Source: Eubacteriales bacterium
GTDB taxonomy: Bacteria; Bacillota; Clostridia; Oscillospirales; CAG-272
Direction of reading: 5' to 3'
NCBI GenBank assembly: GCA_045598385.1
Contig: JAZLLY010000016.1
Coordinates: 153 to 64,152 of the forward strand
DNA: 64,000 bases
Under the pieces are notes generated by a model that saw only the letters and a list, made by a program, of their open reading frames with translations, searched no databases and was not told the origin of the DNA. The stretch's first letter is position 1. Each line of letters starts with the position of its first letter. This document shows, in pieces, positions 58,669 to 64,000 of this stretch. The position numbers and the translations under genes were made by a program.

Positions 58669-58745
58669 GCGCCTTTAGCTCAGCTGGATAGAGCAACTGC
58701 CTTCTAAGCAGTAGGTCGGGGGTTCGAGTCCCTCAAGGCGCGCCA
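58669..58745 (+). tRNA. tRNA-Arg(TCT)
   Basis: GCGCCTT acceptor, TAGCTCAGCTGGATAGAGC, ACTGC-CTTCTAA-GCAGT, GGTTCGAGTCC, CCA. Confidence 0.97.
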
Positions 58746-58754
58746 TTTCAATAT

Positions 58755-58832
58755 GGTGGGATTAGCTCAGTTGGTTAGAGCGCCAGGTTGTGGCCCTGGA
58801 GGTCATGGGTTCAACTCCCATATCTCACCCCA
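58755..58832 (+). tRNA. tRNA-His(GTG), with encoded G-1
   Basis: CCAGG-TTGTGGC-CCTGG anticodon arm, GGTTCAACTCC, C discriminator, CCA. Confidence 0.96.
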
Positions 58833-58834
58833 TT

Positions 58835-61165
58835 TCAGACTGTCGGAAGACAGTCTTTTTTTTGCGCATTTTCGCGTAACGGTTCGATGGTTATCAATTG
58901 TACGGCATCGTCGAGCCATTCTACCGAGACAGCATCACCGTAACGGTAGAGTCCTTTCGCGATACCGGAAGATAAGGGATCTCCGATTTCTTCGTACAAG
59001 GATAAGATGGAAGCTCTCGAGCCGCATCCCGCTATCCGATTTTTGCGCACGATATTCCGGAGAACGGCATCGGATATTTGAATGTTTATCCCGATCTTTT
59101 CACATCGAACGGTAAGTTCTTTTGCCTTACGGCAGAGAATACGATAAAGAGCTTCATCGTTCAGATGAGAAAATATAATGACATCATCCAGCCGTGCAAG
59201 CCATTCTTCCGAAAAAAATTCTTTCAGAAGTTTCATGTCCGGTTCATTCATCGGAGAACCGTGTTGACGGGAAAATCCTGCCACAGAACTCTTGCCGGAA
59301 AAACCGAGATTTGATGTCATAATAACAATAGTATGCAAAAAACTGACTTTTTTTCCGGCAGAATCTGTCAGGAAGCCCTCATCGTTTAACTGCAAAAGAA
59401 GATTTCTTACTTCGCGATTCGCTTTTTCGATCTCATCGAAAAGGATGACGGAATAGGGATGCCGATATACTTTTTCCGTCAGTGTGGCGCTATCGTCATA
59501 ACCGACGTAACCCGGGGGCGTTCCGATCAGTTTCGAGACGGAATGCGCCTCCGAAAATTCGGACATATCGTATCGTATCAGCGCACCGTTCCTGCGGTAA
59601 AACGTATCGGATAGCGCTTTTGCAAGTTCGGTTTTTCCGACGCCGCTCGGTCCGAGAAATAAAAAGATACCGATAGGTCGATCCGGATTTCCGATACCCG
59701 TTCTGTTTCTTACGATGGCTCCGGTTATTTTCTCTATGGCTTTGTCCTGGCCGTATATCCGTTCTTTCAGTTGATTACCGAGCGAGAAAAGGTCAAAATC
59801 TTTGGATTCTTCAAGGGGGATGCCGGTCATAACGGTGACTGCCGTCCGGATATCCTTTTCGGTAAGCTTCAAAGGCATTTTCGGTGAAATATTTTCAGAC
59901 TTGCAAACAGGATCAACGTCGCAAACCATTTTCTTTTGATTCCTATGGCGGACGGAAAGAGAAGCGCAGGATTCGTCTAAAAGATCAATCGCTTTATCCG
60001 GCATTTTCCGACCGTCTATATATTCCCGTGATAATCTGACGACGGAAGAAAGGGCGTTTTCGTCTATTCTGATGCCGTGAAAGTTTTCGTAACGGTTCTT
60101 GATCCCTTTCAGGATAAAAAGCGTTTCCTCGTCGTTCGGTTCTTCCACAAAGATCGGCTGAAATCGTCTGGACAATGCGGCGTCTTTTTCAATGGTTTTT
60201 CTGTATTCGTCAGCAGTTGTCGCACCGATCAATTGTATTTCACCGCGCGAGAGATCCGGTTTCAATATATTCGATGCGTCGATGGCACCTTCAGCCGCGC
60301 CGGCACCGACGATCGTGTGTATTTCGTCGATGAAAAGAACGATCTCTGGATGTTTTTTAACTTCGTCCATGATCGTTTTGAGACGTTCTTCAAAATCCCC
60401 ACGATATTTCGTCCCGGCAATCACAAGTGTCAGATCCAAGGTCAGAATGTGTTTGTTTTGCAATACGGGAGGAACGTTTCCGTCGGCAATACATTGCGCA
60501 AGCCCTTCGGCAATCGCCGTTTTCCCGACACCTGCCTCACCTATCAAACACGGATTGTTTTTGAATTTACGACAAAGAATGCAAATCATTCTTTGCATTT
60601 CCGATTCTCTCCCGATGACCGGCTCGAGTTTTCCTTCAGTCGCCATGGCCGTGAGATCTTTGCCGTAACGCAAGATGGATAGATTTGCCGGGATCCCGTT
60701 ATTTTTTCCCGAACATTCTTTCCATTTTTCTCCCGCCTTCAGAATTGTCAGCGTATCATCGCGTAGACGAATAATGTCAACAGACAGGTATTGAAGTACT
60801 TTTATCGCCATACATTCTTTTTCTTCGAGAATTGCCAAAAGAATGTGTTCGGTTCCTATTTTTTGAGCATTGTATTTTACCGTCAGTCTATAAGAATTTT
60901 CGATAATCCTTTTACATCTCGGCGTCATATTCTGCGGTGTCAGCGAGGTTTTATCGTATATCCCGACGTACTCTCTGATGGCTTTATCAAGAATGGGGGA
61001 AGAACAATTGTATTTTCTTAAAACCGACTTGGCAGAAGAGCAATCCTGTTTCACCAAAGAAAGAAGAATATGTTCGGATCCGACGTAGGTATGACCGAAG
61101 TTCTCGGCGATCTCCACCGTTTGATTCAATGCTTTTTCCGCAAACAAAGTGAATTTATTACCCAA
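58835..61165 (-). CDS. ClpC/ClpA-like AAA+ ATPase lacking the coiled-coil M-domain
   Basis: Two Clp-N repeats (GSEHILL, GTEHILL), GEAGVGKT, KYRG, FIDEIH, GPSGVGKT, PPGYVG, FDEIEKA; TTG start after GAGGAAG inferred. Confidence 0.88.
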   Translation of the reverse strand: MGNKFTLFAEKALNQTVEIAENFGHTYVGSEHILLSLVKQDCSSAKSVLRKYNCSSPILDKAIREYVGIYDKTSLTPQNMTPRCKRIIENSYRLTVKYNAQKIGTEHILLAILEEKECMAIKVLQYLSVDIIRLRDDTLTILKAGEKWKECSGKNNGIPANLSILRYGKDLTAMATEGKLEPVIGRESEMQRMICILCRKFKNNPCLIGEAGVGKTAIAEGLAQCIADGNVPPVLQNKHILTLDLTLVIAGTKYRGDFEERLKTIMDEVKKHPEIVLFIDEIHTIVGAGAAEGAIDASNILKPDLSRGEIQLIGATTADEYRKTIEKDAALSRRFQPIFVEEPNDEETLFILKGIKNRYENFHGIRIDENALSSVVRLSREYIDGRKMPDKAIDLLDESCASLSVRHRNQKKMVCDVDPVCKSENISPKMPLKLTEKDIRTAVTVMTGIPLEESKDFDLFSLGNQLKERIYGQDKAIEKITGAIVRNRTGIGNPDRPIGIFLFLGPSGVGKTELAKALSDTFYRRNGALIRYDMSEFSEAHSVSKLIGTPPGYVGYDDSATLTEKVYRHPYSVILFDEIEKANREVRNLLLQLNDEGFLTDSAGKKVSFLHTIVIMTSNLGFSGKSSVAGFSRQHGSPMNEPDMKLLKEFFSEEWLARLDDVIIFSHLNDEALYRILCRKAKELTVRCEKIGINIQISDAVLRNIVRKNRIAGCGSRASILSLYEEIGDPLSSGIAKGLYRYGDAVSVEWLDDAVQLITIEPLRENAQKKDCLPTV
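58837..58863 (+). terminator. Terminator after tRNAs
   Basis: AGACTGTC-GGAA-GACAGTCT followed by T-tract. Confidence 0.85.
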
Positions 61166-61231
61166 TGGCTCTTCCTCTTTCTTTTTTTGGAAAGTATATC
61201 CGTTCTTTCGGATTTTAAGCAAAATCAACTG

Positions 61232-61735
61232 TTATTTTTCGAGTGTGCCAAGAACTTTCTGCAATTCCCGCATAAAGTCTCTTGAAACCGTCCCCGTCAC
61301 GGGCTTATGCAGTTTTTTCTGCATGGACTTGACTGCGTCTTCCGTTCGATCGGAAAAATAACCGCTGTGAAACGTTTTCGTTCCGTCGCCGTAATGTTCG
61401 GACAAGCTGTTCAAAATGTTTTGAAGGATCTCCACGTAAACGCCCTGTGACGTTACCCGCAGAGGAAAAGGATCGTTCCGTGTTTCTTTTTGCTCCGCCA
61501 TGACATTTGCGACGTTTTCCGCTTCGCCGCAGAGAAGGACGAATGTTTCGTAATCCACTTTGCCCGTCTCTTGCAATCCGTTATCGTGCTGAAATCGCAG
61601 GACGGCTTCTGCCGTCTCTGTCCCGTAAACGCCGTCGATCGGCAGCGTTTTTGTCTCATCTTTCGCATATTCGATATCGAGAAGTTTCGCTTGCACGTTT
61701 TTTACGGCTTCATTTTTATCTTCGATACTGTACAT
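61232..61735 (-). CDS. Peptidoglycan-binding domain protein (2 PG_binding_1-like repeats)
   Basis: DGVYGTETAEAVLRFQHDNGLQETGKVD; GYFSDRTEDAVKSMQ...TGTV; AGGAG RBS. Confidence 0.85.
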   Translation of the reverse strand: MYSIEDKNEAVKNVQAKLLDIEYAKDETKTLPIDGVYGTETAEAVLRFQHDNGLQETGKVDYETFVLLCGEAENVANVMAEQKETRNDPFPLRVTSQGVYVEILQNILNSLSEHYGDGTKTFHSGYFSDRTEDAVKSMQKKLHKPVTGTVSRDFMRELQKVLGTLEK

Positions 61736-61743
61736 AAGTTCTC

Positions 61744-63138
61744 CTATGAGATAACGTAACCCGGGTACTGCTTGTCGGTCGCCAATGATCCGGAATAAAA
61801 ATCTTCGTAAACCGAAACGATAGCGTTCCACGTCAACGTGTTGACACGCCCGGTCTTTACCGGAAGACCGTAAAATTCCTGAAAAGTCCTGACGGCCTTT
61901 TCGGTCTGCGTTCCGTATATCCCGTCCACTTCAACTTTGGAAATGACGGGGTTTCTGTCGGAGATATAATTCAGATACGATTGCAGGACTCTGACATCGT
62001 CACCGTCGATACCTATCCTCAATATCCGTCCGGGATACGGTTTGATCTCTCCGGCGACGTAAACATAAGGTATATCGCTCACCAGCCCGTAATAGACGTT
62101 TTGCATCTTATCCCACACGGCGCGATCCACGATCCCGGTTTCGGGAAGACCGTATGTACGCTGAAACGCGATCACGGCGTCTTTTGTCAAAGGTCCGAAT
62201 GATCCGTCAACCTTGACAGTCGGCACGGTAGGGAGATAGGAACCGATATAGTTCAGATAATACTGCAAAACGACGACACCTACGGAATCCATCCCTTCGC
62301 GCAGGTCAGCAACAAACTGCGTCGAAATATCCGACAGAGAGATCCCCTCGGAATAAAGTTCCGAAAGATTTTTGACGGCACTGTAAACGCTTTCGATCCG
62401 ATACCAGTTCGTCGGTGATACTTCACCCGTCACTTCGTATCCGAATACTTCTTCAAATCGCTTCACAGCTTGGGTAGTTGAGCTTCCGTAAAATCCGTCT
62501 GCCGGGTAGATTTTCGGAATGCCGGGGAAATTGGAGGAAATCCGATTCAGTCGTCTCTGAATCAGTTCCACGTCCCGTCCCGCCTCTCCTTCACGGAGCG
62601 TGACGGGCGGCGCGCTGGCTTCAACAGAACCGACAGGCACGTTTTTCACGATCTCGATATCATTGCCGTAATAACTTTTGAGAATATCGAGATAAGATAG
62701 CCCGTTGTTTGCGAGGGCGACCGTTCCCCATTGAGAAAGCCCGTCGCACGTTACGTTCACGCCGTCGCAGAATTTGGCAAAAAGCGGTTCTATCCGTCCG
62801 ATTTTCCGGATATACGAATTGAATATTTCATCGACGATTCCGGCGATGTTCTGATAAATATCACGTTGATATACGTACTTCTGATCGTTGGCAGGTGTTG
62901 ACGTTATGTCAAAATCATAGCCGCGCGAACGGTAATATTCCGTATAAACGCGGTTCATCGCCACCGAGATCTGTGCGAGAATATTGGCTATCAATGATTC
63001 TTTCGGCCAGGTCGGATATATTTCACTCGATGCCACGTTCTTTATGTAGTCGCTGAAGTTTTCCGTGACGTTTTCCGCGTCCTGGTCCGGACGTCCGAGG
63101 TGGATGACAATCGTATTAGGGATAATGGGATAATCCAT
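61744..63138 (-). CDS. sleC: SleC-like spore cortex-lytic enzyme (mature-domain start) with 3 PG-binding repeats
   Basis: DYIKNVASSEIYPTWP, NRVYTEYYRSRGYDFDITS, FCDG..C..LSQWG, ILKSYYG; three DGxY/FG..T..AV..F repeats. Confidence 0.85.
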   Translation of the reverse strand: MDYPIIPNTIVIHLGRPDQDAENVTENFSDYIKNVASSEIYPTWPKESLIANILAQISVAMNRVYTEYYRSRGYDFDITSTPANDQKYVYQRDIYQNIAGIVDEIFNSYIRKIGRIEPLFAKFCDGVNVTCDGLSQWGTVALANNGLSYLDILKSYYGNDIEIVKNVPVGSVEASAPPVTLREGEAGRDVELIQRRLNRISSNFPGIPKIYPADGFYGSSTTQAVKRFEEVFGYEVTGEVSPTNWYRIESVYSAVKNLSELYSEGISLSDISTQFVADLREGMDSVGVVVLQYYLNYIGSYLPTVPTVKVDGSFGPLTKDAVIAFQRTYGLPETGIVDRAVWDKMQNVYYGLVSDIPYVYVAGEIKPYPGRILRIGIDGDDVRVLQSYLNYISDRNPVISKVEVDGIYGTQTEKAVRTFQEFYGLPVKTGRVNTLTWNAIVSVYEDFYSGSLATDKQYPGYVIS

Positions 63139-63146
63139 GTTCTCTC

Positions 63147-63530
63147 CTATTCCAAGACTACGTCATAGTCTTTCGGGACATTGTTTGCCGCGTCATATCT
63201 TGAAACCGGCGTCATGTTGACGGGGAGTTCCGTTGTAATACCGGGATAAACGGAAACATTGAAAACGGATTTTTTATAATATCCCTCGGCCGTCACCGTC
63301 ACGTTGAGTTCCGAGTATCCTTTTTCGGCGGTCATAGGAGATGCCGTAAGTTCGGGGGAAGGTGTTTTCACACTCATCGTCGGCGTTACGCCGTCCGCAT
63401 TTGAAAACGAACTCATTCGCTCGTTCTTGATCTGTTCCGACGTACCCACGAACAATACCGTTGCGTTTTCAAGGGGATAAGCACCGTTTCCGCTGGTGAT
63501 ACGAAGATAAATATTACCAAAATACTGCAA
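63147..63530 (-). CDS. SleC N-terminal pre-domain-like protein (carboxypeptidase-regulatory-like fold)
   Basis: TTG start after GGAGGAG; PLENATV, SNADGVT, GYSELNVTVTAEGY, PVNMTP. Confidence 0.75.
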   Translation of the reverse strand: MQYFGNIYLRITSGNGAYPLENATVLFVGTSEQIKNERMSSFSNADGVTPTMSVKTPSPELTASPMTAEKGYSELNVTVTAEGYYKKSVFNVSVYPGITTELPVNMTPVSRYDAANNVPKDYDVVLE

Positions 63531-63562
63531 GATTTTCTCCTCCGTTTTATTGATAAAATCGC

Positions 63563-63591: not shown

Positions 63592-63617
63592 GTTAGCCGA
63601 GGAGGGAGACTATTCGT

Positions 63618-63643
63618 ATTGTATGCATACAAAACGGAGACGT
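63618..63643 (-). promoter_or_regulatory. SigK-like promoter candidate for sleC cluster
   Basis: Minus strand AC-16-CATACAAT; low-information motif. Confidence 0.35.
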
Positions 63644-63673: not shown

Positions 63674-64000
63674 ATGAAAGAGCATTTGTTTGGCGATCTT
63701 TGTGTCATCGGCATGAAAGGTTGTGAAGAATTCACCGCTGAAGTTGACAGTTATCTCAAGTCTTTCCGTGCCGGTTTTGAAGACGTCGATACCTACGTCA
63801 CCAACGCCGATTGTCCCCGTTTCGGAAGCGGAGAAGCGAAAGGCGCCGTTCATCACTCCATGCGCGGTCAGGACGTTTATATCATATGCGACGTGTTCAA
63901 TCACGGTGTTACATACAAAATGTACGGGCAGTCCGTTCCCATGAGCCCCGACGATCACTATCAGGATCTGAAAAGAGTCATTGGCGCTATCGGCGGTAAA
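63674..64000 (+). CDS. prs: Ribose-phosphate pyrophosphokinase (5' part, runs off window)
   Basis: GAGGA RBS; MKEHLFG...CPRFGSGEAKG...RGQDVYIICDVFN...MSPDDHYQDLKRVIGA; absent from ORF track because there is no stop in the window. Confidence 0.9.
   Translation, partial: MKEHLFGDLCVIGMKGCEEFTAEVDSYLKSFRAGFEDVDTYVTNADCPRFGSGEAKGAVHHSMRGQDVYIICDVFNHGVTYKMYGQSVPMSPDDHYQDLKRVIGAIGGK

Follow-up and report, generated by a model that had tools for sequence, protein, structure and literature searches.

A split form of SleC in Clostridia, with the pre-domain, the enzyme and additional peptidoglycan-binding repeats in three genes

Background

What textbooks say about cortex lysis in Clostridia comes from two pathogens, in which the enzyme SleC loses a propeptide through a cut by Csp subtilases. 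A different form of the sleC gene raises the question of how the spores of commensal species silence this enzyme and switch it on without a cut by Csp. We have studied this form in a stretch of 64,000 nucleotides (nt) from Eubacteriales bacterium (assembly GCA_045598385.1, contig JAZLLY010000016.1, positions 153 to 64,152 of the forward strand), which we call the window. Near its end three consecutive open reading frames (ORFs) on the minus strand code for a SleC-type pre-domain (ORF1), a SleC-type enzyme (ORF2) and a protein with peptidoglycan (PG) binding repeats (ORF3). The three-gene split is a genuine and anciently fixed form of SleC. An initial annotation of the window had described the three ORFs, ribosome-binding sites for the second and the third, and a frame-shifted junction of 8 nt between the first two; this description is correct to the base. 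The features of the operon are the following, with protein lengths in amino acids (aa).

63147..63530, minus strand: ORF1, 127 aa, TTG start, TAG stop
63537..63543, minus strand: ribosome-binding site GGAGGAG of ORF1, 6 nt upstream of the TTG, read from the sequence
63139..63146, minus strand: intergenic spacer of 8 nt, in which the AGGAG of ORF2 overlaps the TAG of ORF1, read from the sequence
61744..63138, minus strand: ORF2, 464 aa, ATG at 63138, N-terminus MDYPIIPN
62623..63135, minus strand: catalytic domain of ORF2, SpoIID-like/SleC-type, residues 2-172, found by hmmsearch with a profile of 120 homologues
63022-63024, minus strand: codon of Glu39 of the ASSEIY motif, in the catalytic domain of ORF2
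61804..62604, minus strand: three PG_binding_1 repeats of ORF2, residues 179-257, 278-350 and 373-445, found by Pfam and hmmsearch
61232..61735, minus strand: ORF3, 167 aa, ATG at 61735, with an AGGAG which overlaps the TAG stop of ORF2
63617..63643, minus strand: possible promoter of the sigma-K/sigma-E (mother-cell) type, AC-N16-CATACAATA, in the 143-nt gap to a divergent prs-like gene

ORF1 and ORF2 are in different frames (63530-63138 = 392 = 3x130+2). The longest open frame of ORF1 extends to 63632 (161 aa); the start at 63530 is favoured by the ribosome-binding site and by the alignment of its relatives. In the list of open frames ORF3 opens at GTG 61831, and the ATG at 61735 with its ribosome-binding site is the likelier start.

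The pre-domain as a separate protein

A search with the single sequence of ORF1 gave nothing among the PDB sequences and only ORF1 itself in a word-indexed protein collection, so that a profile was required. It was built from 19 relatives, which are the genes immediately upstream of ORF2 homologues, and it matches residues 60-172 of the C. difficile SleC zymogen (PDB 9h68) with an E-value (E) of 1.9e-17. The AlphaFold model of ORF1 has a pLDDT of 90. When it is compared with known structures by Foldseek, the best matches are the four chains of 9h68 (TMq 0.81-0.83, E 8e-9 to 5e-8, the top one 7.7e-9); the next ranks are generic transthyretin- or pilin-like sandwiches. By profile and predicted fold ORF1 is a homologue of the N-terminal pre-domain of SleC, a transthyretin-like beta-sandwich. 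The initial annotation had recognised this pre-region in the small ORF by eye, from motifs which are indeed found in profile-aligned columns.

Domain collections do not give this protein a name. ORF1 has 16.6 bits with CarboxypepD_reg (PF13620), whose fold is of the same transthyretin-like kind and whose cut-off is 32.3; eight of the 19 relatives match it at E <= 0.1. None of the 19 matches DUF3869 (PF12985) at the same level, which is the name given to the N-domain of SleC in a passage of the preprint 10.1101/2022.02.25.481979. The stand-alone family is large: with a threshold of E <= 0.001 we have found 3648 clusters among 1.84 billion representative proteins, and 2657 remain at E <= 1e-10. 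Lengths in the 150 best clusters are all 109-403 aa, with the domain at the C-terminal end of the longer members. There are thus thousands of clusters of stand-alone pre-domain proteins with no Pfam family, unnamed at present. Many stand-alone pre-domain ORFs have N-terminal extensions of 100-300 residues (L014 586-1884, L038, L040, L051, L077, L101, L107 and others); the extension in L014 is rich in Pro and Gln.

The enzyme and the peptidoglycan-binding repeats

ORF2 starts where mature SleC would start. Its residues 1-260 align to residues 214-475 of 9h68_A without large gaps (E 9.2e-65), and residue 1 falls on the L of the stretch LDNPVVPE, which we take, as the initial annotation did, to be the N-terminus of mature SleC. 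The proposal that the large ORF opens at about this point agrees with the alignment. All 32 aligned sequences have Glu39 of the ASSEIY motif, and the residue is identical in 9h68; from work on SpoIID we presume that it is the catalytic residue. The same 32 sequences have a mean column identity of 59% and 55 invariant columns.

The repeats follow the catalytic domain. ORF2 has three PG_binding_1 stretches (Pfam E 3.4e-47) and classical SleC has one. Two such stretches (Pfam E 5.5e-25) and no other domain make up ORF3, as the initial annotation had described it. ORF2 has 22.8 bits with Pfam SpoIID/LytB (PF08486), just under the cut-off of 23 bits, and it is under the SpoIID equivalog cut-offs (TIGR02669, 33.3 vs 83.3; TIGR02870, 30.5 vs 234.75). 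The match to SleB (TIGR02869) gives 81 bits, with a cut-off of 236.5, and covers the PG-binding repeats only; no Hydrolase_2 domain is found in ORF2 by Pfam. By eye, no signal peptide is obvious in any of the three proteins, and the same holds for SleC.

Distribution and phylogeny

In the genus of the window a pre-domain ORF (127-195 aa) is directly followed by an ORF2 of about 465 aa in 16 of the 16 loci fetched. For a wider view we drew an even sample of 401 genomes from the class, 399 of which were scored. The architecture of the ORFs was typed with three home-made hidden Markov models (hmmsearch); all 93 places which match the pre-domain were fetched and typed, with ORF starts given by the untrimmed frames. 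A pre-domain match was found in 89 of the 399 genomes, distributed as follows.

Split pair only: 68 genomes
Split pair and a classical fused gene: 1 genome (G317)
Classical fused gene only (411-459 aa; one repeat after the pre-domain, the linker and the catalytic domain): 15 genomes
Multi-repeat fused gene of 833 aa and an orphan pre-domain ORF: 1 genome (G369)
Truncated gene of 253 aa: 1 genome (G244)
Weak pre-like matches with no catalytic neighbour: 3 genomes

The split order is thus found in 69 of the 399 genomes and the classical fused gene in 16. The gene order recurs far more often than chance would allow. Two split loci (L045 and L189) are cut by contig ends. A survey of split and fused sleC in Clostridia had been proposed in the initial annotation; now that it has been run, the split is seen to be the commoner form in the sample and not a peculiarity of this genome. 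Of the 80 loci taken from named records, 54 have the split form and 26 the multi-repeat fused form. The split ones belong to Oscillospiraceae, Ruminococcus and metagenome-assembled genomes labelled Eubacteriales, Clostridia or Bacilli, the fused ones to Faecalibacterium, Pygmaiobacter, Lawsonibacter and Erysipelotrichaceae.

ORF1 and ORF2 overlap by about 120 nt at one extreme (L164) and are 365 nt apart at the other (L027), and each gene has its own start; such a wide range means that there is no conserved recoding site. A genome from another family of the same order (G040) has a single ORF of 910 aa with the pre-domain, a linker of 32 residues, the catalytic domain and at least five repeats. 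The identity of ORF1 is beyond doubt, because fused relatives join both domains in one ORF.

For a tree we used the catalytic domain together with the first repeat. In FastTree (141 rows) the 94 split genes form one side of a branch with support 99. The same branch has an SH-aLRT of 98 in a quick IQ-TREE run with 67 rows, which included 35 split genes picked at random and 15 multi-repeat fused genes picked by hand. The 17 classical genes are a separate group with support 99, and between the two groups come the multi-repeat fused genes. All rows are accounted for by two changes of architecture, and the split has one origin on the tree. The tree is unrooted, and either the split or the fused multi-repeat form may be the older.

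The third gene is a usual yet variable part of the module: it may be separate, fused to ORF2 or missing. An ORF with PG-binding repeats only is directly downstream of ORF2 in 26 of 40 split loci of the class sample and in 40 of 54 from the named records; in 7 of the 40 ORF2 is longer instead (533-632 aa). Up to six PG_binding_1 repeats are found in one chain of the fused relatives, so that the number of repeats appears to outweigh the way in which they are linked. ORF3 aligns about equally well to any pair of repeats, so that its comparison with repeats 4-5 of a fused relative, made to look for colinearity, was uninformative.

Two groups of loci may be mentioned here. In L136-L153, from Faecalibacterium, Pygmaiobacter and Lawsonibacter, there is an intact fused SleC-like gene of about 870 aa with five or six repeats, usually followed by an ORF of 230 aa with one repeat. 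Faecalibacterium is not known to sporulate, and these genera are known as non-sporulating or poorly sporulating. Four loci labelled Muribaculaceae, Barnesiella or Bacteroides (L118, L142, L149 and L153) have sleC-type genes which are nested among Firmicutes, three of them within the Faecalibacterium group. Most likely they are mis-binned contigs.

The propeptide

The stretch between the two domains of 9h68 was read from a HMMER alignment with a fused relative as query. After the pre-domain there is a basic stretch with the sequence SRQS, then about 35 residues (...IFDIGEHTL / YGTYPPKIPE... / ...GFVV) and then the mature start. We assume that the SRQS motif is the YabG site, that the propeptide has a length of about 35 residues, and that Csp cuts within the YPPKIPE...VVL stretch. 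The pattern E.I.[IV].PNTL.GNYPPKIPE...KPLPPP.SG.VVL is present in all 17 classical fused sequences.

In the window the YPPKIPE...VVL stretch is found neither in ORF1 nor in ORF2. Most stand-alone ORF1 proteins terminate as ...[IV].[VE]..P[QE]NL, exactly before the YPPKIPE part. Their tail corresponds in most relatives to the first 11 residues or so of the propeptide, the ...I.V.PNTL stretch; this correspondence is a reading of motifs with no alignment score, since MAFFT misplaced the tails against the catalytic N-terminus. On the other side of the junction the ORF2 homologues begin a few residues ahead of the conserved P.IPE.I.VHLG. As the tails of ORF1 stop before YPPKIPE and the ORF2 homologues start near the mature N-terminus, about 23 residues have been deleted. 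The initial annotation had considered the propeptide as apparently missing. This is right for the YPPKIPE-type part, but the first 11 residues or so persist as the tail of ORF1 in most relatives. In classical SleC the pre-domain is at the N-terminus of the same polypeptide and the propeptide lies between it and the enzyme; here the homologous domain is ORF1, in another gene and another frame, and the end of ORF1 retains no more of the propeptide than a remnant of the first residues.

Processing proteases and spore genes

In C. difficile SleC is processed by YabG and CspB, according to passages in PMC6878958 and PMC3567191. We have searched for both proteases in the class sample. Peptidase_S8 is too common as a marker of Csp (290 of the 399 genomes), and it was replaced by CspB_prodomain (PF18425). 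This domain is present in 15 of 400 genomes, all of them among the 16 which have a classical fused SleC. It is found in 0 of the 68 split-only genomes, nor is it found in G369 or G244. The correlation which the initial annotation had proposed to test is therefore seen in these data: Csp accompanies the fused form (15/16) and never the split form by itself (0/68). In 18 of the 68 split-only genomes the result table has no match to Peptidase_S8 at all. A subtilase gene adjoins the fused sleC in 8 of 20 fused loci, and in 7 of these 8 it has the CspB_prodomain; the 20 loci contain 68 ORFs with 400 aa or more, and the scan of neighbours covered 64 of these.

YabG (Peptidase_U57) is less clear. It is found in 67 of the 399 genomes, and whole families are without it, among them some with sleC genes. 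Nine of the 16 classical fused genomes have it, against one of the 68 split-only genomes (G295, where the gene has an in-frame stop). As a correlate of the fused form it is only partial, since five classical fused genomes of family f44, G163 and G317 have no YabG. It is described as a sporulation-signature protease in the abstract of PMC10681294. For such a signature its scarcity is odd: it is absent from the genome of the window too, in spite of Spo0A, SpoIVA and GerA. One genome, G317, has both systems, a split pair (pre-domain ORF of 374 aa and enzyme of 468 aa) and a classical fused SleC of 411 aa flanked by two subtilase genes (L051 and L073).

The genome to which the window belongs has 1.5 Mb, is 99% complete and contains a single sleC-type gene. 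It has no Peptidase_S8, no CspB_prodomain and no YabG; the Csp subtilase which is the partner of classical SleC is therefore absent. A full-length sleC with csp elsewhere in the genome, which the initial annotation had considered as an alternative source of the activity, was looked for in this way and not found. Spo0A is above its cut-off, and SpoIVA and one subunit of a GerA-family receptor are also present, so that the genome resembles that of a spore former with a classical nutrient receptor.

The motif upstream of ORF1 gives a weak hint of mother-cell expression, read from the sequence. With the consensus of sigma-K/E promoters as a guide, the strict pattern AC-N16/17-CATAnnnTA was searched for up to 300 nt upstream of the pre-domain, and it occurs in 19 of 136 split loci vs 1 of 136 on the opposite strand. 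In C. difficile sleC belongs to the sigma-K regulon, as stated in a passage of PMC6878958.

A model of the complex

The first 262 residues of ORF2 were modelled together with ORF1. The complex has a score of 0.84, and the best of three controls has 0.00. The mark applied to this score is reached by 116 of 157 solved complexes and by 2 of 215 mismatched pairs. At least 97% of the contacts are common to the runs, and the pLDDT of the partner is at least 88. In the predicted interface the strand 95-105 of ORF1 is placed beside residues 89-99 of ORF2 and the last residues of ORF1 (124-127) are included; it also touches ORF2 41-44, two residues past the invariant Glu39 of ASSEIY. This model is what points to control of the enzyme by separate subunits, which the initial annotation had proposed and which we infer.

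Possible control of the enzyme

We consider it probable, with a good margin of doubt, that the locus codes for a genetically pre-cleaved SleC whose pre-domain works in trans as a chaperone or as a latency factor; this latter step we infer. A single prepro-zymogen would have been split at the propeptide. The genes have the parts of SleC already apart at the point of the classical cut: ORF1 corresponds to the pre-domain with the first residues of the propeptide, ORF2 to the enzyme from its mature N-terminus with three repeats, and ORF3 to two further repeats as a protein of their own. As an enzyme made ready-cut, it would need neither YabG nor Csp, and its own genome has neither. Its role is presumably that of SleC, a lytic transglycosylase of the spore cortex. 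ORF1 may bind ORF2 non-covalently beside the active-site motif. It could be a folding helper and would probably also hold the enzyme latent in the dormant spore, replacing the role of the lost propeptide. When a GerA-type receptor senses germination, ORF1 might be released or destroyed, or the accessibility of the cortex might change, with no cut of a propeptide; the trigger would be other than Csp proteolysis. ORF3 and the additional repeats may anchor the enzyme on the cortex peptidoglycan. A more definite proposal, which we make tentatively and with more doubt than confidence, is a zymogen switch without protease: the pre-domain would be a detachable lid on a ready-cut enzyme, freed by a cue, physical or chemical, which lies downstream of the GerA-type receptors. 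If true, a switch of this type, and not the Csp-SleC cascade of the pathogens, would be the usual control of cortex lysis in gut Clostridia, as the class-wide sample has about four split genomes for each classical one.

Several observations weigh against a pre-cleaved SleC controlled by ORF1. The ORF1 of the window itself ends in DVVLE, about 6 residues short of the tail of its nearest relative. The score of the complex may be a memory of 9h68 in the model, because 9h68 holds both domains in one chain; what the model shows is likeness to 9h68 and not binding of separate proteins. The genome has a single Hydrolase_2 protein (SleB/CwlJ-type), which could share or take over cortex lysis. The promoter motif is present at just 19 of the 136 split loci. 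As for the proteases, G056 has a classical fused gene and is also without CspB_prodomain. None of five genomes with multi-repeat fused genes has this domain, nor has G369, so that all of the multi-repeat clade may be independent of Csp, and the split may have come later. The contrast of 15/16 vs 0/68 also represents few evolutionary events, because the genomes are related and two changes of architecture account for the tree.

The strongest alternative is that ORF1 acts in the mother cell as a folding helper only, in trans where the prepeptide of C. perfringens does so in cis, and is absent from the spore. Latency would then come from cortex accessibility, calcium dipicolinate (Ca-DPA) or hydration, which have been proposed for CwlJ and SleB in Bacillus. 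The homologous prepeptide of C. perfringens SleC is reportedly required for the production of active enzyme, to judge by the title of a work by Okamura et al. from 2000, and the model of the complex agrees with either function, chaperone or inhibitor. According to part of PMC3567191, sporulating cells of the model systems remove the pre-domain. Such a helper leaves unexplained that 68 of the 399 genomes have lost the inhibitory part of the propeptide without replacement. Against it also stands the predicted interface, which adjoins the ASSEIY motif. We judge it unlikely, although it deserves to be kept in mind. There is less to be said for a function outside germination, namely the remodelling of peptidoglycan, either in vegetative cells or, as for SpoIID, during engulfment or cortex synthesis. 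In its favour, the catalytic domain has a distant similarity to SpoIID (22.8 bits with Pfam SpoIID) and multi-repeat fused relatives are found in Faecalibacterium, which is not known as a spore former. Yet ORF2 matches SleC with E 9e-65 and a SpoIID structure with E 0.36, it is far under the SpoIID/LytB and spore_II_D cut-offs, the three proteins resemble SleC in having no obvious signal peptide, and the genome retains Spo0A, SpoIVA and GerA. This function is in our opinion quite improbable.

It may finally be asked whether the split is an error of assembly or sequencing, a recent pseudogene, or a gene repaired in translation by frameshift or read-through. Between the frames of ORF1 and ORF2 there are only 8 nt. 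Two gut-metagenome DNA runs, with shares of 0.09 and 0.05, have contigs which do not cover 63132-63215, and no RNA run with the locus was listed; the reads are thus no evidence either way. Against an artefact stand the split order in 69 sampled genomes and in 54 of the 80 named-record loci, with variable spacing and a start for each gene, and the single well-supported clade formed by the split genes. The propeptide stretch is deleted and not merely interrupted, and ORF2 is constrained, as its 59% mean column identity and 55 invariant columns indicate. An explanation of this kind has hardly any probability left: for practical purposes the comparative data rule out an artefact, a pseudogene or recoding.

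Comparison with known systems

The split form departs from three defining features of SleC, the single precursor, the propeptide and the Csp partner, while it keeps the enzyme and the folds of both domains. In common with the classical proteins of C. difficile (9h68) and C. perfringens it has the catalytic domain, the first PG-binding repeat, the fold of the N-domain and the ASSEIY motif. It differs from them in that the pre-domain is a separate gene, YPPKIPE...VVL is deleted, there are three repeats instead of one and a third gene has two more; its genome has no Csp and no YabG, and the classical genes form a separate clade (support 99). The nearest relatives in the tree are uncharacterised SleC-like proteins of 585-926 aa, multi-repeat and fused, from Faecalibacterium, Pygmaiobacter, Lawsonibacter, Erysipelotrichaceae and G040. 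They also have several PG_binding_1 repeats, and none of the 6 genomes tested gave a match to CspB_prodomain, but they keep the pre-domain, a linker of 30-60 residues and the catalytic domain in one polypeptide.

In Bacillus the systems SleB-YpeB and CwlJ-GerQ consist of a cortex-lytic enzyme with a separately encoded partner, which serves for stability or localisation and possibly for latency. By analogy the logic may be the same here, an enzyme with a co-transcribed non-enzymatic partner and no proteolytic activation of a zymogen. There is no homology, since ORF2 is without Hydrolase_2 and ORF1 is unrelated to YpeB or GerQ. The abstract of PMC13393411 notes that YpeB may keep SleB inactive. 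Another possible analogy is with the prodomains of proteases such as subtilisin and CspB, which work as foldase and inhibitor and in which a detached N-domain is bound non-covalently near the active site; the difference is that here the detachment is genetic and not proteolytic, and that the enzyme cleaves glycan strands and not protein. The prodomain of CspB stays bound after cleavage, according to parts of PMC3567191 and PMC13434707.

We have found no paper which describes a split sleC in the full-text literature, a coverage that leaves outside subscription journals and supplements; an earlier characterisation, which the initial annotation had allowed for, did not appear there. In a passage of the preprint 10.1101/2022.02.25.481979, on sporulation genes, SleC is presented as a multidomain protein of many clostridia. 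The Csp-free split form is about four times commoner than the classical one (68 split-only vs 16 classical fused in 399 genomes) and includes gut commensals of the Oscillospiraceae and Ruminococcus type. The choice between split and fused sleC could be a genomic marker which separates Csp-type from Csp-free germination. The operon also supplies a small partner protein, predicted to lie beside the active-site motif, which is a testable handle.

Genomic surroundings

The operon has the following neighbours in the window.

58835-61228, minus strand: ClpC/ClpA-like double AAA+ ATPase (Clp_N, AAA, AAA_2), a few bases past the stop of ORF3
63674-64000, plus strand: prs-like gene (ribose-phosphate pyrophosphokinase), divergent from the operon
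58669-58832, plus strand: two adjacent tRNA genes, tRNA-Arg(tct) and tRNA-His(gtg), in convergent orientation to the ClpC-like gene

The ClpC-like ATPase scores under the ClpB and ClpA equivalog cut-offs. Its gene may be co-transcribed with the operon. As a general partner of the module it was rejected: only 10 of 54 split loci, which are all close relatives, have a homologue 3' of the operon. The prs-like neighbour recurs at several loci of the genus.

The Hydrolase_2 protein of the same genome (G000:C41:5991-6995; L022 811-1815) has a Cu_amine_oxidN1 domain in front and not PG_binding_1, and no ypeB-like neighbour was recognised beside it. Finally, G056, which was mentioned above, has a genome of 1.2 Mb with a classical fused SleC of 420 aa (L068) and YabG, and it has neither Peptidase_S8 nor CspB_prodomain.

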